A stretch of DNA of 32,000 bases from Acaryochloris thomasi RCC1774 (lineage in GTDB: Bacteria > Cyanobacteriota > Cyanobacteriia > Thermosynechococcales > Thermosynechococcaceae). A model generated the notes under the pieces. It searched no databases, was not told the DNA's origin, and saw only the letters and a program-made list of their open reading frames with translations. Below, one piece after another: positions 10,224 to 20,877 of this stretch. The stretch lies in assembly GCF_003231495.1 (NCBI RefSeq), contig NZ_PQWO01000001.1:570001-602000 (forward strand). Direction: 5' to 3'. Each line of letters starts with the position of its first letter. The stretch's first letter is position 1. A program made the position numbers and the translations under genes.

Positions 10224-11128
10224 TTGGACAAGAGCAGGCAACTAAGCTGCTGCTACGTGCGATCGCAACCCACCGCATTGCCCCTGCATACCTCTTTGTA
10301 GGCCCCCACGGTGTTGGACGTCGCTTAGCAGCTCAAGCCTTCCTGCAGCAATTGCTTCAAGGTTCTACTCACCGCGCCATTGAGAACCATCCCGACGTGC
10401 TGTGGATCGAACCCACCTATACACAGCAGGGCAAACTGATCACGGTCTCTGCCCTAGCCGCCAAAGGAGACAAGCCTCCTAAAGCTCAGCCACAGGTCCG
10501 TTTGGCTCAAATTCGCCAGATTGCTCAGTTCCTTAGTCAGTCACCTTTAGAAGCAGCCCGCCAGTGCGTCGTCATTGATCATGCCGAGACGATGAAAGAA
10601 GCCGCCGCCAACGGCCTGCTCAAAACCCTAGAAGAACCGGGAAGTGCAACCCTGATTCTGTTAGCCCCCACCGCCGATAGTCTTCTGCCCACCCTCGTCT
10701 CTCGCTGTCAGCAGATCCCATTCCGGCCCCTCTCTGCCGCTCACATGCAGCAGGTGTTAGGCCAAGCGGGCCACGCCGAAGTCCTCAGCAATATTCCTGT
10801 TCTCTCAATGGCCCAGGGCAGTCCTGGTGCTGCCATCACCGCCTGGGAACAGCTCCAGACAATCCCATCTGAACTTCTTGAGCGCTGCCATCTCTGCCCG
10901 ACGACCGCTTCTGACTGCCTAGCGCTCGCGCAGTCCGTTGAGCAGTCCTTAGAGGTCGATGCTCAGCTCTGGCTGATTGATTATCTGCAGCAGATTGACT
11001 GGCAAACTTATGGGCAAGCCCAGCGACTTCATATTCTCGAAACCGCGAGGCGCTATCTGCGCTCCTATGCTCAGCCCCGCCTTGTCTGGGAAGTTACCCT
11101 GTTAGAGCTTATGGAAACAGTGCCTTAG
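10196..11128 (+). CDS. holB: DNA polymerase III delta-prime subunit (clamp loader)
   Basis: FSELVGQEQATKLLLRAIATHRIAPAYLFVGPHGVGRRLAA, then LLKTLEEP and TLVSRCQQIPFRPL. It overlaps the tmk 3' end by 28 nt. The tmk-holB order is conserved in many bacteria. Confidence 0.85.
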   Translation: MVSAPFSELVGQEQATKLLLRAIATHRIAPAYLFVGPHGVGRRLAAQAFLQQLLQGSTHRAIENHPDVLWIEPTYTQQGKLITVSALAAKGDKPPKAQPQVRLAQIRQIAQFLSQSPLEAARQCVVIDHAETMKEAAANGLLKTLEEPGSATLILLAPTADSLLPTLVSRCQQIPFRPLSAAHMQQVLGQAGHAEVLSNIPVLSMAQGSPGAAITAWEQLQTIPSELLERCHLCPTTASDCLALAQSVEQSLEVDAQLWLIDYLQQIDWQTYGQAQRLHILETARRYLRSYAQPRLVWEVTLLELMETVP

Positions 11129-11161
11129 TTCGTCAATTCGGTGCTACAATTATTCGAGTCC

Positions 11162-11234
<73 letters not shown>

Positions 11235-11274
11235 TTTAAACTAGAAGCCTCTCGTACAGCATTTTGTGCTGGCA

Positions 11275-11712
11275 TCACCTTTTTGGTGCATTTTTAGGAG
11301 GCAGTCTTACGATCGTAAACCAGAATTCTTCCAGCAACTGCACAATTTTGGTTAGCCCGTCTAGCCCAATCGGTTTAGTGACGTAGGCATTGGCTCCAAT
11401 GCGATAGCTCTTGAGGACATCTTCATCCGCCTCAGAGGTCGTGAGGATAACCACAGGCAGGTGCCTTAGACCGTCATGGGCGCGAATTTTTTCTAGCACC
11501 TCACGGCCATCCATTTGGGGCATATTGAGGTCAAGCAGGATCAGATCGGGTAGGTTTGGCTCTGGCTTATCAAGTTGTTCGTGTAGGTATGACATAGCCT
11601 CCACGCCATTGCGAGCAACTTCCATCTCTAGCTGCACCTTGGTCTCTTCTAGAGCAATTTCAATAAGTTCAATGTCGCCCAAGTCGTCGTCAACTAATAA
11701 AACCGTAATCAA
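11275..11712 (-). CDS. Single-domain CheY-like response regulator (Rcp1-like)
   Basis: 145-aa receiver with VLLVDDD, the phospho-acceptor context LILLDLNMPQMDG, then LTTS and YVTKP. It lies directly downstream of the histidine kinase, 62 bp away on the same strand. Confidence 0.9.
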   Translation of the reverse strand: MITVLLVDDDLGDIELIEIALEETKVQLEMEVARNGVEAMSYLHEQLDKPEPNLPDLILLDLNMPQMDGREVLEKIRAHDGLRHLPVVILTTSEADEDVLKSYRIGANAYVTKPIGLDGLTKIVQLLEEFWFTIVRLPPKNAPKR

Positions 11713-11774
11713 GATTCAATTCTCCCTTACTTCGATAAACTTACCGTGATTGATAGCCTTTGCGCTGAACTGAT

Positions 11775-14312
11775 TTATGCGCTGACCTCAACAGCAGCTA
11801 GAGTCACCTCTTGGTGGTGTGAATCCAGTTTTCGCTGGGTTGAGAGTGTGAACATGAAGGTAGCTCCTGGCTCCGAGGACTCGCTCAACCAAATCTTTCC
11901 CCCATGTCGTTCGATAATCTTTTTGCAGACGGCTAAACCAATTCCAGTGCCAGAATAGGCTTCACGATTGTGGAGGCGCTGAAAAATGATAAAGATGCGG
12001 TCTGCATACTCAGGAGCAATACCAATGCCGTTGTCTTGAACAGAGAAAGTCCAGATTGCATCAGATTGAACCGCTCGAATTTGAATCTTCGGAATCTCAG
12101 CCTGACAGTACTTGATCGCGTTGCTCACCAGATTTTGAAATAACTGCCGCATTTGCGACGGATCTGCAGGTAAGGTCGGCAAGGGCTGAGATTCAATTTG
12201 GACCTGTCGTTCTGTAATGATATGAGTCAGATCGGACTGAATATCCGCCAAGATCGTGTTCAGATCAGTGGGCTGAACATTGAGCTCTGCCCGTCCGACC
12301 CGAGAGTAGGTCAGCAGATCGCGGATCAACACCTGCATTCGGCTGGTGCCGTCCATAATATGGTTCATGTAGCGCTCTGCTTTTTCATCTCCTTCTCCTG
12401 GGTAGCGTTTAAACAGAAGTTCAGTGAAGCTTTTAATCTTACGCAGGGGTTCTTGAAGATCATGGGAGGCAACGTAGGCGAATTGGCCCAGTTCTTGATT
12501 TGAGCGTGAGAGTTCGTGGTTGAGCTGGTGTAGCTCTTCTTCTACTGCTTTGCGATCGCTAATATCAAGGTGTACGCCAGCCATGCGTGAGGGCTGATTC
12601 TGCCCATCTCGCTCAACCACTTTCCCGAGGTTGGCAATCCATTTCCATGCGCCGGATTCCGTCAGCATTCGATAGTCAAAGGCATAGGGAGTAGAGGCAT
12701 CTTTAAGGTGAGCCGCAAGAATATTTTGAACCCAGGGTAAATCATCGGGATGGACTAGGTTTTCCCAAGTCAAATAATTTCCTTTGCCTTGTTGATCCGT
12801 ATAGCCCAGCATTGTGAAGTACTGAGGACTCAGGTTAAGTGCGCCAGTCTCGATATCCCAATTCCACCAGGCTGCACCCGATGCCTCTAGTGCCAGCTCT
12901 AGCTGTTCTTGGCTCTGTTTTAGACTTGCTTCAGCTTGTCGTCGATCCTGTACCTCTTGCTGCAGTAACTGGTTGGCTGTGAGCAGCTCTTGCGTGCGCT
13001 CTTTGACTCGATTTTCTAGGTCTTCCTTTGCTTGCTGGAGCTGTCGTTCGAGCTGCTTTCGCACAGTGATATCTCGCCAGCTTGATCGACTTTGAACAAC
13101 CTGTCCCTGTTGATCGCGGATAGCATGCACATTGAGGCTAACATCCATCTGACTACCGTCTTTACGCTGGAGCTGAAGTTGCGCATCTTGCACTCTTCCG
13201 GTTTGGACGAATTGCTGAAAGGCCACTTCAACGTCTGGTAGACAAGCAGGGTGATAGACGTCAAAAATCCTTCGATCCAATATTTCAGTCTTGGTATAGC
13301 CCAGTGCGTTCGTTAGGGTCTGGTTACAGCGAAGAATTTTTTTGCTCTCCGCATCAACAGAGACGTACATGTCGGGCGCATTTTCGTAGAGATCTTGATA
13401 TTCTGCCTGAGACTCCTGCAACCGAATGTAGGTCTGCTCAAGATCCGCAGTTCGTTCCTGAATTCTCGCTTCTAAATCCTCATTAAGAATTTGTAGGTCG
13501 GCTTCGTACTGCTTACGGGCGGTAATATCTTGAATCTGAGAGACAAAGTATTGTGGATGTCCCTCCGGTCCATAAACTGTGGATACGCTTAGGAGTGCCC
13601 AGATTACCTGCCCATCCTTGTGAAAATAGCGTTTTTCCATTTCATAGCGGCTGATTTCCCCCAAGAACATATGCTGTACATAATTCAAGTCTTTGTCTAG
13701 ATCCTCAGGGTGGGTGATGGCTTGAAAGGTCGTTTGTAACAGCTCTGCCTCTGAATAGCCAGTGAGTTCACAAAGGGCTGAATTGACCTTTAGCCAGCTT
13801 CCGTCTAGGTCAACGAGTGCTTTGCCAATGGGGGCATAGTCAAAGGCATTTTGGAAAAGCTGCTGGCTATCTGTTAATTCTGCTTCAATGCGTTGTCGCT
13901 CTGCCATAGAGAACGTTAGGGCGCGGTTGACTTTTTCCAGCTCCGCAGGACTCTTGAGCGCTAAGGCTTGGGGGACAACAAACAAAAGCTGAATCGCGGT
14001 CATCACTGAAATAATGGCAGTCACGGCTTTCGCAAAGCCTGATATCCAGTAGTCAGGATTCCATAACGTCCAGATTTCTAAAAGATGAGTGGTACCGCAG
14101 GCAAGAATAAAGGCTCCGAACAGTACGAATACTCTGGAATACATCAAGTCTTTTCGCTGATAGACGAAGTAAACCAGCATGCAAGGGATAGAAAAATATG
14201 CGATCGCAACTAGCGCATCCGAGATCACATGCAGCCCAACTAACTCTGGTTTCCAGAGATAGCAATGGCCATGGGGGATAAAAAAGCTCGGAGAGTAGGA
14301 AGTATCCAGCAT
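11775..14312 (-). CDS. Membrane sensor histidine kinase: N-terminal ethylene-binding-domain-like 3-TM module, three PAS domains, HisKA and HATPase
   Basis: 845 aa. Residues 1-125 are hydrophobic and align by eye to Arabidopsis ETR1 residues 20-110 (see findings). There are three PAS-like repeats separated by coiled-coil linkers. The H-box is [16 protein letters not shown], the N-box is [10 protein letters not shown] and the G-boxes are DNGIGI and [11 protein letters not shown]. Confidence 0.9.
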   Translation of the reverse strand: [845 protein letters not shown]

Positions 14313-14363
14313 TTTGACTTGTTATTCAATAATCTCGACCAGCCCCTCAAGATAGGCCAACAC

Positions 14364-14966
14364 TCAGTCGCGGTTCAGTGCCGCTTGACAGAACAAATTG
14401 GGTAGTCGCCGCCGCACAAACATCAGCAGATAAACGCCGATATACAGTACATTCACGGCAATGAAGAGACCCTGTACAAACACCGACTCAACGATCGGGA
14501 ATAAATACAGCGTGGCGATCAGCACCAGCAAAATTTCCACTAGGGCCACAATGTAGCCATGGTGCCTTGGATCCCAATACGATACGGGGCTGATGAAACG
14601 ATAGTGATGGAAGGGAAAAAAGTGACGGTGTGCATCATCATGGTGGACGGGAAGGTCTAATAGTGAATGCAGCACGGCACTACCGGACAACAGTGCTAAC
14701 GTGTGTGATTGGCATAGGATACCCACACCCACTCCCACACTCGCCAAGGGAATAGAATGAAATAGATCAGTCCAGGTTTGCCAGAATGGCAGGTAGTACG
14801 TTTCGGTCCATAGTTGCCGTGCTGGAATACGTCGAATCTTTGCCCATGCATACAGCACAAACATCGGAACATCAGGCAATATAGCTCCTAATGTGATAAT
14901 CGGGAGTGCTTGAGGTTCCGGTAGCAGCAGAGCAAGATTTAGAATTGCATGGCTGGGCGTATTCAC
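14364..14966 (-). CDS. Polytopic membrane protein, possibly a YdjM/DUF457-like membrane-bound metal-dependent hydrolase
   Basis: 200 aa with a GTG start and 5-6 hydrophobic segments. It has a His-rich patch (LPVHHDDAHRHFFPFHHY) and an N-terminal TPSHAIL motif like the YdjM family. The assignment is by recollection only. Confidence 0.4.
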   Translation of the reverse strand: MNTPSHAILNLALLLPEPQALPIITLGAILPDVPMFVLYAWAKIRRIPARQLWTETYYLPFWQTWTDLFHSIPLASVGVGVGILCQSHTLALLSGSAVLHSLLDLPVHHDDAHRHFFPFHHYRFISPVSYWDPRHHGYIVALVEILLVLIATLYLFPIVESVFVQGLFIAVNVLYIGVYLLMFVRRRLPNLFCQAALNRD

Positions 14967-15472
14967 AAATGATTAAACCAATAGAAACCTCTCTCAAGAT
15001 AGCATTGACATTGAGGCATTAATAATTCGTTGGAAGTGAGCGTCTTTGATATCTTAAAGATGCAGATTAGGGTGAAGCTAAGTGCCCATGATTAATCCAC
15101 CAAACCTATCTCTGACAGTAGATTCACTGTCTTTCTACGGCCGCCGACTGTTGATGGAAAAGCAAATACAGAACTGATTAAAATTCTCGCAAAAAAGTAT
15201 AATTCGCTTTAGCTTAGAACTATAGTCAGGTCTAATTGTTATCCAGGGCTAATGCGACTTTTCTTAGCAACGTTAAAGTTTTTTTGCCTTTAACGTTTAC
15301 AAGGTAGCCTGTCTCCGATTATCTGCACGGCACTCGCGATTATTCTCTCAGACCTCCATAAACCTTGGGCTTTGAAACTGCAGTTTCTCTACAAAGGGAC
15401 GTGCAAATAGTTTCAACTCATGTGAGAGAAACTTTCACTAGGGACTCACTTTAGAAGGTGCACAATTGCTTA

Positions 15473-15498
15473 CAGGTCTATCAAACCAGATAGACCTG
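15473..15498 (-). terminator. Perfect 10-bp stem / 6-nt loop hairpin about 84 nt downstream of the phosphoketolase stop codon
   Basis: CAGGTCTATC-aaacca-GATAGACCTG, with exact reverse complements. There is no U-tract on the minus strand, so it may be an RNA-stabilising or processing hairpin rather than a canonical intrinsic terminator. Confidence 0.3.
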
Positions 15499-15581
15499 CA
15501 AGGCTGAACTCTCAATTTCACAACTAGGTTAATTTGTTATGACTGATTTGAGACCTGATATCGGCAAAGGAGAGAAAGATG

Positions 15582-18011
15582 CTATTCACACATCTCAGAG
15601 TAGGGCCACCTCCAGTCGACAATCTCATCTTGGTCCTTGCCATGCGTATGAGCATAGGCCAAACACTCGATGATTTTATTCCGCATCCGCTCTTTTGCGT
15701 GGCCTGCCGCAGATCCTAGCTTTGGCACTCGGTCAATCACATCAATGACTAAATTAAAGCGATCCACTTCATTCTTAATTGCCAACTCTAGTGGCGTATT
15801 GATATTGCCCTGCTCTTTATAGCCCCGTACATGAATTCGTTCTTGATTAGAGCGACGATAAACCAGCTTGTGAATCAACCAGGGATAGCCATGGAAGTTG
15901 AAGATCATCGGCTTATCGCGGGTAAACAGAGAGTCAAAGTCTCGATCAGATAAACCGTGGGGATGCTCCCCTTCAGACACCAATTTGAATAAATCCACTA
16001 CGTTCACAAATCGCACCTTAAGCCAGGGAAATTCTTCCCGCAAAATCGCTGTCGCCGCTAACGATTCCATCGTCGGGATATCGCCACAGCAGGCCATCAC
16101 CACATCGGGTTCATCCGGCTCGATTCCGCAGTCATCATTACTGGCCCAATCCCAAATACCGATGCCCTTTGTGCAGTGGGCAACCGCCTCATCTATCGAC
16201 AGATACTGTAGGTGTTTCTGCTTGTCCGAGATGATTACGTTGATATAATCCACGCTGCGGAAACAGTGATCTGCCACCGATAGCAAACAGTTCGCATCCG
16301 GCGGGAAGTAAAGCCGCACCACATCTGGACTCTTGTTGGTTACTAAATCTACATAGCCTGGATCCTGGTGGCTGAAGCCGTTATGGTCCTGTCGCCATAC
16401 CAGTGACGACAACAAGATATTCAAGGATGAGACGGATCTCCGCCAGGGAACATGATTGCGACAAATATTCAGCCATTTAGCATGCTGATTAAACATTGAA
16501 TCGACCACATGGGCAAAGGCTTCATAGGTATGAAATAGGCCGTGACGTCCGGTGAGTAGGTAGGTCTCTAGCCACCCCTGCAGCGTATGCTCACTGAGCA
16601 TTTCCATGACCCGACCGTCCCGAGACAGTTCAGTCCCGTCTTCGTCTTCGGGATACATGTCTGCCATCCAAACTTTCTTGGTGACTTGATACACGTCCTG
16701 GAGACGATTCGAGGCTGTCTCATCTGGTCCCATTAACCGGAAGTTATCAGGGTTATCCCGCATGATCTCCCGCATGAATAGGCCTAGTGCTTTAGTATTC
16801 TCAAACTCGACGGTGCCGTGTTGCTCTCCAATATTGATGGCAAGGTCATGGAAGTTGGGCAGCTTCAGCGCCTTCCGCAGCAACCCTCCGTTAGCGTGGG
16901 GATTAGATCCCATGCGGCGATTTCCCATAGGTGCCAGTTCTTTCAGCTCTGGAATCAGCGTCCCGTTTTCATCAAATAGCTCTTCCGGTTTGTAGCCGCG
17001 CATCCACTCTTCGAGCTTGCGGAGGTGATCGGGGTTGTCGTGCATTCCGCCCATCGGGACTTGATGCGATCGCCAAAAGTCTTCGACCTTCTTTCCGTCC
17101 ACTTCTTGAGGCCCCGTCCAGCCCTTCGGAGTCCGCAAGACAATCATCGGCCAACGAGGGCGTTCAATCTTGCCCGTGGTGCGGGCTTCTTGCTGCACTT
17201 CTCGAATCTTGAGAACGCACTCCTCCATGACCGCAGCCATTTTCTGATGCATCTCCGCCGGATTCTTACCCTCAACAAAATAGGGCGTGTAGCCATAGCC
17301 CTTGAACAAACACTCCAGTTCCTCATGGGAGATCCGGGCCAGAATCGTGGGGTTGGCAATTTTATAGCCGTTCAGATTCAAAACCGGCAGCACGGCACCA
17401 TCACGGGCCGGATTGATGAACTTATTAGAATGCCAAGAGGTTGCTAATGGTCCTGTTTCTGATTCGCCGTCGCCTACCACGCAGGTCACAATCAGATCGG
17501 GGTTATCCAAAACTGCACCGTAGGCATGGGAAACGCTGTAGCCCAGTTCGCCCCCTTCATGAATTGACCCTGGCGTTTCGGGGGTGACATGACTGCCAAT
17601 AAAGCCAGGGAAGGAGAACTGCTTGAAAAAGCGCTGCATGCCCTCAGCATCTTCGCTTTTGTCGGGGTAGATTTCCGAATAGGTGCCTTCGAGGTAGACC
17701 GGTCCGAGGACTCCAGGCGCACCATGGCCGGGACCTGCCATGAAGATCATGTCGAGGTCGTATTTTTTGATTAACCGATTGCAGTGAATGTAGGTAAAGC
17801 TAAGGGCGGGGGAAGCGCCCCAGTGACCGAGTAAGCGATGTTTTATCTGTGAAGACTGGAGAGATTCTTTTAGCAGAGGATTATCTCGAAGATAAATCAT
17901 ACCAACGGCAAGATAGTTGCAGGCATGCCAGTAGGCATCAATTTTGTGCAATTCAGCGTCCGTCAATGGGTTGAGCGAAGAAATAGCTTGTGGAGCAGCC
18001 TGAATCATCAT
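15582..18011 (-). CDS. xfp: Phosphoketolase (xylulose-5-P/fructose-6-P phosphoketolase), ThDP-dependent
   Basis: 809 aa. Family signatures are [13 protein letters not shown], the ThDP motif region [19 protein letters not shown], and [16 protein letters not shown]. The size is typical of Xfp. Confidence 0.95.
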
Positions 18012-18202
18012 TTATCTCTCTTGTAGAAGTGTGGCGAAGTTTGAATCGGGCGAGGTTTCATTTCAGTCTGGAGGGATGACCACCCAAAACGCAGCATTAG
18101 AGAACACATCTTGTCAGGTTTTAGACATCTGAGGGGAGCTGCCAAGTTCTGCATTGGCCCCCGGCATTAGGGAGCTAGGGGACCATCCAAAGGCTGTTAC
18201 TT

Positions 18203-18913
18203 CTATTGCCGAACGTCAACAGATTCCACTTGCGCTGCGGGAAGATCGGTGTGCGGATTCTCGATAGGCAGATGAGTATGGGGACTCTTGAGACTGGACT
18301 GCTCTTCCATTGCCTGACAGGCCACCATTGTTTTGACATGCTCCATCTCATCATCACGAATGGCAACAAATACGTCATAGAGGGTGTCTACTGCGGGGCG
18401 ACGTGACTCAGGCGGCTGGGACGTTTGAAATTCATCGAACAGATAAAGATCGCCATCGCGGTAATAGCCGATTGCAATTTGAGGAGCCGGTTGGTTTTTC
18501 AGGTCAGCTTCATTAGCGCTCAAAAACTGATCGTAGGTGTGATATGCTTCTTCCTCGACCAGCTCCATGAAGCGATAGGCAGAGCGCGGCGAGACAACAT
18601 ATAGACCCACAATAATCCAGTAGTACAGCAGGGCCACATGGCGAGCCAGGAATCGATCTATCCACTGTTGATTGCCGCCCAGTTCTTCCATAATCAGAAG
18701 GTGGTGAAGCTCATTCCAGGATTCAGCAAAGTGAACTTTTAGCCAGTCCGCCCGCCGCCAGACCCCAATGGTTTCATAGAGGTGCAAAACGGAAAGGTAG
18801 GAGAAATAGGGGACACGAGCGACTGTTTCTAATACATAGAAGCGTGGAATGGGGCGATCTCGATAAATATTTTTCAAGACGAAGACCAAGACACCGACCA
18901 GCAATCGAATCAT
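18203..18913 (-). CDS. ptox: Plastoquinol terminal oxidase (PTOX) / alternative-oxidase-family di-iron quinol oxidase
   Basis: Di-iron carboxylate ligand motifs are present: LETVARVPYF, ESWNELHHLLIMEE (ExxH), EEEAYHTY and RDDEMEHV (ExxH). The start is set at the ATG at 18911-18913, which is preceded by AAGGAG on the minus strand. The track ORF begins 19 codons further upstream. Confidence 0.85.
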   Translation of the reverse strand: MIRLLVGVLVFVLKNIYRDRPIPRFYVLETVARVPYFSYLSVLHLYETIGVWRRADWLKVHFAESWNELHHLLIMEELGGNQQWIDRFLARHVALLYYWIIVGLYVVSPRSAYRFMELVEEEAYHTYDQFLSANEADLKNQPAPQIAIGYYRDGDLYLFDEFQTSQPPESRRPAVDTLYDVFVAIRDDEMEHVKTMVACQAMEEQSSLKSPHTHLPIENPHTDLPAAQVESVDVRQ

Positions 18914-19131
18914 GATGAAACACTCCTTTAATTCACTATCTGCATCCTGGCCGATCCACTCATGGGCCACAAGATAGGCACCCAGAGCGCCCCATAGTTA
19001 CCAGCAGCAAAAAGCTAGTACTCTCTCTGGCCTCTACGTGCTTCTGAAAAAAACATTAAATTTCTTGTAACTGTCAGCTAGGCATCTCGATAGAAGAGAT
19101 TCAGCCGCCAAGATAAAGGTAGCCACACTAA

Positions 19132-19506
19132 ATGGGTAAACAAATGAGCAAAATGCAGGACTGCCAAAACGTGCAGTGCCCGATTGAGTTCACCCTAGAT
19201 GTGTTGGGGGGAAAATGGGCTATCCCGATTCTGCGAGAGTTATTTGATGGAACCCGCCGTACGCATCAATTGCTAGATGCATTGCCGGGTATCAGCAGCA
19301 AAACCTTGATGGTTCGTCTCAGAGAGCTAGAACGCCACGGCCTTGTCGAACGGCAGGTCTTTGCAGAGGTTCCGCTACACGTAGAGTATTCCATCACTGA
19401 CAAGGGGCAACAGGTTCAGCCGGTTCTATCTGCGCTCTATCAAGTGGGGCAATTGTGGCTTGAACAGCAGGATTGCTATTGTCCTCTGAGTGAGAAAGTG
19501 AGCTAG
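19132..19506 (+). CDS. HxlR-family winged-helix transcriptional regulator
   Basis: 124 aa. CPIEFTLDVLGGKWAIPILRELFDGTRRTHQL...ISSKTLMVRLRELERHGLVERQVF...VEYSITDKG is the classic HxlR pattern. It is divergent from ptox. Confidence 0.85.
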   Translation: MGKQMSKMQDCQNVQCPIEFTLDVLGGKWAIPILRELFDGTRRTHQLLDALPGISSKTLMVRLRELERHGLVERQVFAEVPLHVEYSITDKGQQVQPVLSALYQVGQLWLEQQDCYCPLSEKVS

Positions 19507-19557
19507 AGAATCAGACTGGGCAAAGCGCTTAATCACGACGCTAAGTGCTAGCTTTGA

Positions 19558-19812
19558 GTGGGCGATCTTTCTGGAAGTACCGTGCTTCAAGCTATTTATG
19601 CCGCTCTAACAAACCCTCGCTATCGTTCTAAAGCACTGCGGGTGGCTTTGGTGGTGGGATCACTTCTGTTTGCAATTAATCATGGGTCAGCTTTGGTTGA
19701 GGGGCGAATGAAACGAGATCGCTGGATTTCTGCGGTCTTAACCTACTGTGTCCCTTATCTCGTTAGCATTCACGGCCAAAGCACAGGTGCTCAAGCCGCT
19801 CACAAAAGTTGA
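19558..19812 (+). CDS. nrtS: Small two-TM membrane protein, NrtS-type nitrate/nitrite transporter family
   Basis: 84 aa with a GTG start. ALRVALVVGSLLFAINHGSALVEG...RWISAVLTYCVPYLVSIHGQ matches my recollection of the NrtS family consensus. It was not verified by search. Confidence 0.55.
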   Translation: MGDLSGSTVLQAIYAALTNPRYRSKALRVALVVGSLLFAINHGSALVEGRMKRDRWISAVLTYCVPYLVSIHGQSTGAQAAHKS

Positions 19813-19821
19813 GTCGAGCTT

Positions 19822-20826
19822 TCAAGATTTAGATAAATTAGGCTCCACTATCTCCGGGAAGTCTGCGAAATTTCGCTTAACCCAATCCATCCCTACCTCA
19901 TTGTTGAGCCTGATCTTCTGAGGAGCGTCAGGGTAGAGCTTGCCGAGAATATCGGTATCTTGCTCCACAACCACTTTTCCGAAGTTGAGATATGTCTTGC
20001 CCAAAAGATTAAAGAGTGGATGCTTGGCCTGACCAAAGAGCAGAATGTAGGTGCGGGTTCGGTTCTCAGCTTCTGGAACAAAAAAGTGACACTGCGCTGC
20101 TTTCCCGAGAGGCATTTCGCCGTGAAAAATGACCAGTGACGGGAAGTGATTCTCTAAATGAGCTTGAATAGTCTCAGGCAGCAAGAACAAATCTGGCTTT
20201 CTCAGTTTTTCGACTAAGCGATAGGACTCTGTTGGTGTATCGAAATAGGCATGAGATTGGTGCCCCTGATCGATGAATTGATGAAAGTTGACTTGAGTAA
20301 TGCGAAAGAGATCCCGATGGGTTCCGTTTTGATGGTTGTAGTCATGCATATTCAGCAGCATGGGAAGCAGCTCGGTCTCAACGCTGCAGTCTGCGGTATG
20401 GCCAATAAAGCGATAGGTTTTGGCGATTTCATTCATGACCGAGGGAATCGGCCTCTGAGGCTCGTGTCCACCATAGGACCAAATGAAATCTCCCTGAACG
20501 ATGAGTTCTAGCGGCTGTAGCTGAGGTGCCGTTTTCTTTTCAGACCCCGGCAAAACAGTACATCCTGCTCCATCAAACTTGAGAGCATGAAAAGGGCAAA
20601 CGATACCAGAGGTATCAGATACTGCAGGATGTAATGATTCACACCATCCTTCCGACAACATTGCACCCATATGAGGACAGGTATTGGGCAATGCATGAAT
20701 CTTTTGAGAAGCATCTTTCCAGAGCACATAATCATTCCCATAGAGCGATACTCTGCGAGGCTGATTCTCGGCCAGCATAGATTTGTGCGCCAACAGCCAT
20801 GGCGCACCGGGAAGCATAGATCGCAT
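19822..20826 (-). CDS. Rieske [2Fe-2S] non-haem-iron oxygenase (alpha-subunit-like), substrate unknown
   Basis: The Rieske motif is CPHMGAMLSEG...CPFHALKF (CxH...CxxH). A mononuclear-iron motif, DxxHxxxxH, lies in NMHDYNHQNGTH. Length is 334 aa. Confidence 0.85.
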   Translation of the reverse strand: MRSMLPGAPWLLAHKSMLAENQPRRVSLYGNDYVLWKDASQKIHALPNTCPHMGAMLSEGWCESLHPAVSDTSGIVCPFHALKFDGAGCTVLPGSEKKTAPQLQPLELIVQGDFIWSYGGHEPQRPIPSVMNEIAKTYRFIGHTADCSVETELLPMLLNMHDYNHQNGTHRDLFRITQVNFHQFIDQGHQSHAYFDTPTESYRLVEKLRKPDLFLLPETIQAHLENHFPSLVIFHGEMPLGKAAQCHFFVPEAENRTRTYILLFGQAKHPLFNLLGKTYLNFGKVVVEQDTDILGKLYPDAPQKIRLNNEVGMDWVKRNFADFPEIVEPNLSKS

Positions 20827-20877
20827 GATCTTCTCCGTTCGCTATAAAATTGTGAAGAATTTGTCGTGTTTTAAATT

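Follow-up and report, generated by a model that had tools for sequence, protein, structure and literature searches.

We analysed a 32,000-nucleotide window of the genome of Acaryochloris thomasi RCC1774 (contig NZ_PQWO01000001.1, positions 570,001 to 602,000), in which two adjacent genes on the minus strand encode a sensor histidine kinase and a stand-alone receiver. A preliminary description of the locus, made from the letters alone, had taken the N-terminal part of the kinase for an ethylene-binding domain (EBD) of the kind found in the plant receptor ETR1. The two genes and the parts of the kinase lie as follows, in window coordinates and with the basis of each assignment in brackets.

11775–14312, minus strand: sensor histidine kinase of 845 aa with the order EBD, three PAS domains, HisKA, HATPase_c, from an ATG start (open reading frame (ORF) and Pfam)
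14253–14276, minus strand: N-terminal motif P13-H14-G15-H16-C17-Y18-L19-W20, ahead of both helix 1 and the Pfam domain
13956–14243, minus strand: ETR1-type EBD, residues 24–119 (PF25487 and ungapped alignment)
14157–14249, minus strand: transmembrane helix 1, residues 22–52, bearing D32, Y39, I42 and P43 (hydropathy 27–52; AlphaFold2 22–52)
14061–14138, minus strand: transmembrane helix 2, residues 59–84, bearing I69, C72 and H76 (hydropathy 56–80; AlphaFold2 59–84)
13959–14051, minus strand: transmembrane helix 3, residues 88–118, bearing K95 (hydropathy 92–119; AlphaFold2 88–118)
13524–13856, minus strand: PAS domain 1, residues 153–263 (PF00989, best stretch 153–263)
13056–13400, minus strand: PAS domain 2, residues 305–419 (PF13426/PF08448 at residues 310–419)
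12543–12905, minus strand: PAS domain 3, about residues 470–590, of PAS_3 type and without Cys (PF08447, best stretch 493–581)
12297–12491, minus strand: HisKA dimerisation and phospho-acceptor domain, residues 608–672 (PF00512)
12462–12464, minus strand: codon of His617 in the H-box SHDLQEP (motif scan)
11838–12164, minus strand: HATPase_c catalytic domain, residues 717–825 (PF02518, E = 2.8e-26)
11275–11712, minus strand: stand-alone Rcp1/RcpA-like receiver of 145 aa with a C-terminal EEFWFTIVRLPP extension (PF00072 and PDB matches)

The kinase begins with a true ETR1-type EBD, as had been claimed. Its residues 24–119 match the Pfam model PF25487, ETR1_N ('Ethylene receptor 1-like, N-terminal domain'), on positions 2–97 of the 97 in the profile, that is over its full length, and the match scores 136.7 bits against a cut-off of 27 bits (E = 3.3e-40). 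The residue register was tested by MAFFT with database sequences; the plant receptors were pulled from the protein database with an ETR1 sequence that served only as bait. The alignment contained the representative of a Brassicaceae ETR1 cluster with 109 members (P0122), the Swiss-Prot entry ETR1_PASED (P0214), ETR2_PELHO (P0192) and AzoEtr1, which was taken from the record of Azospirillum brasilense Sp7 and authenticated by its length of 525 aa and by D35 and C75 at the published D35A and C75A sites. Among the window kinase, plant ETR1 and AzoEtr1 the alignment is gap-free across ETR1 residues 25–69, the window kinase standing at an offset of +7 from ETR1 throughout, and D25, Y32, I35, P36, I62, C65 and H69 of ETR1 correspond to D32, Y39, I42, P43, I69, C72 and H76. 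Both the offset and the complete set of seven binding residues had been put forward in the preliminary description, and both hold against the database ETR1. C72 and H76 stand in register with C65 and H69, the point on which the preliminary description had let its assignment stand or fall. The ORF coordinates and the position of the Cys72 codon given there are also correct, and the peptide quoted there is present: codon 72 is TGC at 14097–14099, and codon 76 is CAT at 14085–14087. By homology, C72 and H76 are the predicted Cu(I) ligands. The counterparts of K95 of the window kinase are K91 in ETR1 and K98 in AzoEtr1; the helix-3 lysine K91 is thought to pair with D25 and to couple it to the output of the receptor (PMC11819568). 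The ETR1-type match and the residue register are far beyond chance.

Three transmembrane helices had been expected, and three were found both in the hydropathy profile and in a structural model. The Kyte-Doolittle plot peaks at residues 27–52, 56–80 and 92–119, and nothing after residue 130 exceeds 0.67. An AlphaFold2 model of residues 1–150, built on a 120-sequence alignment, reached a mean pLDDT of 81.6 and contains helices at 22–52, 59–84 and 88–118, a linker helix at 122–149 and a short N-terminal helix at 14–20. The spacing from C72 to H76 on helix 2 is one helical turn. A Foldseek search with this model returned no match at E ≤ 0.001 and only generic three-helix membrane subunits, such as NuoK of complex I.

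Beyond the EBD, Pfam finds the whole output path that had been proposed, with three PAS domains followed by HisKA and HATPase_c, and the transmitter is complete. The 845-aa protein has what defines a kinase of the HisKA class, namely H617 in its H-box, the G1 and G2 boxes, PF00512 and PF02518; the motif scan found both ATP-binding boxes intact, DNGIG (760) as G1 and GTGIG (788) as G2. Among PDB sequences, the best relative of the kinase core is 8f71 (7e-48), an entry labelled 'histidine kinase' only, and bacteriophytochrome kinase modules match at ~1e-39. No GAF, PHY or cyanobacteriochrome domain was found in the kinase with Pfam, the GAF families PF01590, PF13185 and PF13492 being absent among its matches at E ≤ 0.1, and the PAS domains contain no LOV-type Cys motif or other photosensory signature. 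The 'light-independent' sensing proposed earlier is consistent with this lack of a detectable photosensory module and may hold. NCBIfam gives only generic PAS and kinase models, each under its cut-off, and for this reason the closest database relative is named merely 'PAS domain S-box protein', exactly the annotation that had been foreseen.

The receiver gene follows the kinase gene on the same strand after a gap of 62 nt. It starts with TTG and has a Shine-Dalgarno-like AGGGAG 9 nt upstream. The only Pfam domain of its product is Response_reg (PF00072), and the catalytic set is present (D9, D10, D61, T91/T92 and K113), with the phospho-acceptor D61 encoded at 11530–11532. Its top PDB matches include the phytochrome regulators RcpA (1k68, 8e-32) and Rcp1 (1i3c, 1e-30), and the alignment with them runs through the C-terminal EEFWFTIVRLP. 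A receiver domain alone, the Asp/Thr/Lys set, an aromatic C-terminal extension and similarity to Rcp proteins make this a receiver of the Rcp1/RcpA type, in agreement with the adjacent Rcp1-like single-domain receiver described from the sequence.

Conservation was assessed in two sets of sequences, namely the 120 top-ranking EBD homologues, which were aligned, and 29 EBDs from other genomes that were drawn independently with a different query. The seven binding residues, C72 and H76 included, are invariant in the first set, and all seven together with K95 are retained in 27/29 EBDs of the second. The N-terminal motif is conserved as well: H14, G15, C17, Y18, L19 and W20 are invariant in the 120 cyanobacterial EBD proteins, and the motif is kept at 28 of the 29 independent loci. 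Its counterpart in AzoEtr1 is PHGVCLFW, whereas plant ETR1 has no such motif and carries C4/C6. The motif may serve a dimer disulfide, for which C17 is the candidate cysteine, or the handling of metal; the single N-terminal Cys of cyanobacterial EBDs has been remarked on before (PMC6682694).

The nearest relative is a metagenome-assembled genome (MAG) labelled Cyanobacteria bacterium P01_A01_bin.17, whose kinase is 89.6% identical overall. The kinase is under purifying selection, with a dN/dS of 0.12 in this comparison, and the EBD is its best-conserved segment, at 98% identity as against 88–89% elsewhere. An end-to-end ortholog of the kinase with the same domain order and 60% identity occurs in a MAG of Acaryochloris sp., and an ortholog of the receiver (65% identity) sits with the kinase ortholog in one cluster of the same MAG. 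Because both orthologs lie together there, the kinase-receiver pair is a conserved module.

We compared the window pair with the known EBD and Rcp systems. Bacterial EBD proteins have been in the literature ever since the work on Synechocystis, and the EBDs of SynEtr1 and AzoEtr1 expressed in Pichia bind ethylene, while mutations of the equivalents of the Cys or the Asp abolish function (PMC6682694, PMC11819568). In 2025, ethylene binding and signalling were demonstrated for AzoEtr1, an EBD-PAS-kinase whose gene is immediately followed by that of a receiver, and which controls biofilm formation and root colonisation (PMC11819568). The window pair has the AzoEtr1-type arrangement, in which the gene for EBD-PAS-HisKA-HATPase is followed at once, on its own strand, by one that encodes nothing but a receiver. 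Like the window pair, AzoEtr1/AzoRR-Etr1 of A. brasilense Sp7 combines a three-helix EBD, PAS and a histidine kinase with a stand-alone receiver, and its EBD, which is about 49% identical to that of the window kinase, keeps the seven binding residues and the helix-3 Lys. In contrast, AzoEtr1 has one PAS domain in 525 aa and the window kinase three in 845 aa, the similarity outside the EBD is about 24%, the two receivers share only 29% identity, with AzoRR falling outside the Rcp1 type, and the AzoEtr1 gene lies on a 1.75-Mb replicon of a proteobacterial host. On this comparison of sequences, the two pairs share an architecture class, not orthology.

Like the window kinase, SynEtr1 (Slr1212/UirS/PixA) of Synechocystis sp. 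PCC 6803 is an EBD-histidine kinase from a cyanobacterium; it binds ethylene and passes phosphate to a response regulator (PMC6682694, PMC11819568). However, it is a dual light and ethylene receptor with a cyanobacteriochrome GAF, and the window kinase lacks the GAF that lies between EBD and kinase in the SynEtr1/UirS type. In addition, Slr1213, with which SynEtr1 is paired, turns on the transcription of a small RNA, whereas the window kinase adjoins an Rcp1-like receiver that has no output domain. The preliminary description had named Slr1212 as the only characterised cyanobacterial homologue; GeiEtr1 and GeiEtr2 of Geitlerinema have been studied physiologically (PMC6682694). Geitlerinema sp. 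PCC 7105 resembles the window genome in having EBD kinase paralogues in one genome, and its cells, which contain these two EBD kinases, bind ethylene and respond to it at nL/L concentrations (PMC6682694). Both Geitlerinema kinases contain GAF, and GeiEtr2 also has a fused receiver, whereas the proteins of the window genome have PAS only and separate receivers.

Arabidopsis ETR1/ERS1 share with the window kinase a homologous EBD that aligns gap-free over helices 1 and 2, the same Cu-ligand and binding residues, and a HisKA/HATPase transmitter. The plant receptors differ in having GAF in place of the PAS domains, two N-terminal cysteines (C4, C6) instead of the bacterial P-H-G-x-C-Y-L-W, and a loop between helices 2 and 3 that is 3 residues longer, and they signal mainly via CTR1 and not by phosphotransfer (PMC11819568). 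On the output side, the transmitter H-box SHDLQEPLR and the receiver subfamily are those of Cph1-Rcp1 and CphA-RcpA, the FW...LP C-terminal extension included, but the input of the phytochromes is a bilin-binding PAS-GAF-PHY core where the window kinase has an EBD and PAS.

Kinases of this kind are widespread, contrary to the rarity that had been implied for the combination of EBD, PAS and kinase. ETR1_N was found in 119/401 sampled genomes of the phylum and in 72/156 genera, a single genome having as many as about nine copies, and a domain-restricted database search that was confined to the allowed protein lengths gave 2,523 proteins with E ≤ 1e-3. The architectures of the top 120 homologues were tallied by hand from precomputed Pfam lists; these homologues had been ranked by EBD similarity, so that the sample is biased.

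32/120: EBD, PAS and kinase, with no GAF and no fused receiver (as the window kinase)
48/120: EBD, PAS and kinase, with no GAF and with a fused receiver
15/120: GAF-containing (as SynEtr1)
20/120: EBD-kinase with or without a receiver, no PAS
4/120: GGDEF proteins
1/120: partial

EBD, PAS and kinase without GAF is thus the commonest architecture, with 80/120 of the nearest EBD homologues. It is missed by annotation pipelines, yet it is neither rare nor uncharacterised. Plasmid-borne EBD genes were seen in Acaryochloris, Pseudanabaena, Azospirillum, Novosphingobium, Rhizobium and Deinococcus. A weak EBD-like match with 37% identity lies on a plasmid of Deinococcus aquaticus. Loci in Gemmataceae MAGs and in Zavarzinella formosa (L078, L081, L082) match the query from residue 11–20 on, and because this includes the EBD region, EBD-type kinases may also occur in Planctomycetota.

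We read the window pair as a two-component system with a sensor of the ETR1 ethylene-receptor family that responds to ethylene, and we give this reading a probability of roughly 80%. Its starting points were obtained directly: the identity of the domains, the register of the residues, the topology, the integrity of the catalytic motifs, and the conservation of the kinase and the selection on it. The steps that we infer, from Cu and ethylene binding through the sign of regulation to phosphotransfer to the adjoining receiver and the output, would run as follows. The three N-terminal transmembrane helices form the EBD. By homology, C72 and H76 of helix 2 would hold a Cu(I) ion to which ethylene binds, and ligand binding would be coupled to the output by D32 (helix 1) and K95 (helix 3). 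The signal would be relayed through a coiled-coil linker (residues 122–149) and the three cytoplasmic PAS domains, which may integrate further signals. The HisKA/HATPase transmitter would autophosphorylate His617, from which the phosphate would move on to Asp61 in the Rcp1-like receiver. On the inverse-agonist model, adopted by analogy from ETR1, SynEtr1 and AzoEtr1, ethylene probably inhibits a kinase that is active in air, and receiver phosphorylation would therefore drop when ethylene is present. The receiver lacks an output domain and would presumably act by protein-protein contacts.

Several points weigh against this reading. The homology from which Cu and ethylene binding are predicted amounts to roughly 40–50% identity, and no solved EBD structure was found against which to compare the geometry of the site, a PDB sequence search giving E = 1.6 at best. 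The three PAS domains could dominate the input. The genome contains seven Rcp1-like receivers, and so the specificity of the partners is argued for by adjacency and conserved synteny alone. Finally, a scan for promoters and terminators found matches no commoner than in shuffled sequence.

An alternative keeps the copper site but changes the signal: the EBD would bind Cu(I), while what is sensed would be some different small pi-ligand, for instance another alkene, CO or an isonitrile, or else the copper or redox state of the membrane itself. Ligand specificity has been measured for few EBDs only (PMC6682694, PMC11819568), and the environment of the site may differ from that in plants because bacterial EBDs carry an extra invariant N-terminal H-G-x-C that is absent from the plant receptors. 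Nevertheless, all seven residues needed for ethylene binding in the alanine scanning of ETR1 are invariant here, and high-affinity ethylene binding has been found for every cyanobacterial or proteobacterial EBD tested that has these residues, which makes another signal unlikely.

We consider it very unlikely that the EBD is mainly a membrane anchor or dimerisation module and that the true inputs (redox, oxygen, some metabolite, or light through a cofactor that has escaped recognition) enter through the three PAS domains. The strong conservation of the EBD relative to the rest of the kinase and the invariance of its ligand-site residues are not expected of a mere anchor. The kinase does have three PAS domains without an assigned ligand, the third of which weakly resembles the PAS domains of LOV-kinase and FixL in a PDB sequence search, but there is no LOV Cys motif in the kinase and PAS3 has no Cys.

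Besides the ethylene-responsive pair proposed for the window, the genome contains two further EBD genes. The one on contig C3 (C3:83081-86375; L154:582-3876) encodes a kinase of 906 aa with the order EBD-PAS-HisKA-HATPase, which retains the seven binding residues, and is followed by two receiver ORFs on the same strand; the first of these is Rcp1-like and shares 44% identity with the window receiver. This locus is a second complete, parallel module. The other, at approximately 221668–223122 of contig C7 (L003:1423-2877), encodes a 484-aa kinase with EBD, PAS and a HisKA_2/HWE-type transmitter. Its EBD still scores 92.6 bits with ETR1_N and is degenerate: D32 is replaced by Glu, P43 by Leu, I69 by Ala and the Cu-ligand Cys by Gly, the equivalents of H76 and K95 are retained, and the N-terminal H-G-x-C motif is also missing. 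A conserved subfamily was sought for this paralogue and rejected, as its best match in 400 other genomes of the phylum (~50% identity) is no closer than canonical EBDs; for the same reason the paralogue looks lineage-specific. One other degenerate EBD, with C→S, Y→C and P→F, was seen among the 29 loci (L126). It is conceivable, but quite unlikely, that the genome encodes a mixed receptor set in which the two canonical modules are joined by the degenerate protein as an ethylene-blind partner or modulator; the loss of the N-terminal motif together with the copper site would then suggest that P-H-G-x-C-Y-L-W serves copper acquisition or the binding site and not only the dimer disulfide.

The adjacency of a receiver varies among non-hybrid EBD-PAS kinases, and P0015, P0087 and P0078 are orphans. 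On the contig that encodes P0013 (L148:234-8792) and in an Acaryochloris MAG (L006:3432-10777), the EBD-PAS-kinase is part of a larger signalling cluster together with a protein of the type response regulator-(PAS)-GGDEF-EAL, another PAS-kinase, and either one or two stand-alone receivers. The window genome encodes response-regulator-GGDEF proteins that share up to 58% identity with the GGDEF-EAL neighbour, but they lie away from the window pair. By analogy with these related loci, the gene with GGDEF and EAL domains hints at an output through cyclic di-GMP, surface behaviour or motility, which we offer as a conjecture.

On either side of the pair, the following features border the locus.

14364–14966, minus strand: His-rich polytopic membrane ORF of 200 aa, 51 nt upstream of the kinase gene
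11162–11234, plus strand: tRNA-Phe (GAA), convergent with the receiver gene and 40 nt from its end

The His-rich ORF has no Pfam or NCBIfam match of its own. Its family is unnamed, has more than 1,000 homologues that are mostly cyanobacterial by source name, and shows a faint YdjM/DUF457 affinity, a few homologues having PF04307 (YdjM) and one bearing the source name DUF457/YbcI membrane-bound metal-dependent hydrolase; a paralogue lies at C3:177576-178124. For a synteny test, 30 loci of homologues from the 401-genome sample were scanned with a purpose-built EBD hidden Markov model. That this ORF is a dedicated copper-loading partner in a three-gene ethylene-sensing operon is highly improbable: the ORF is on the same strand 51 nt upstream, has clustered His in a polytopic membrane protein and adjoins the kinase gene also in the near-identical relative, but an EBD was found within 1.5 kb at 0/29 loci of other genomes (only the window's own locus, the positive control, matched), the locus of the 60% ortholog in Acaryochloris lacks the ORF, and its family is large and has that faint membrane-hydrolase affinity. 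We rejected the copper-partner role for this lack of EBD linkage at the 29 loci.

The G+C content is 0.45–0.49 over 12–16 kb and about 0.52 in the flanks. Despite this dip, a genomic island at tRNA-Phe is unsupported, as no direct or att-like repeat of the tRNA-Phe end was found in 11100–22500 and no integrase among the ORFs scanned. Between the His-rich ORF and a phosphoketolase gene, 615 bp (14967–15581) contain no ORF of at least 80 aa, which is unusually long for the window. At 15582–19506 the phosphoketolase (XFP, 809 aa) forms a block with a homologue of PTOX/alternative oxidase (255 aa) and with a divergent regulator of the HxlR family, and this block is syntenic in the nearest relative (L086).

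The window pair is an ordinary member of a known family, and the matching AzoEtr1 system has already been characterised. The locus opens no new question; its value lies in the correction of an annotation and in a candidate for the biochemistry of the EBD, whose structure is unsolved. Ethylene perception outside plants has been documented in a handful of organisms, namely Synechocystis, Geitlerinema and Azospirillum, while thousands of bacterial EBD kinases are annotated merely as 'PAS domain S-box protein'. The photochemical formation of ethylene in natural waters is known (PMC6682694). With a non-hybrid kinase, one small receiver and no photosensory domain, the locus is a clean and compact example of its kind and could offer a simple setting in which to test ethylene signalling that does not depend on light.

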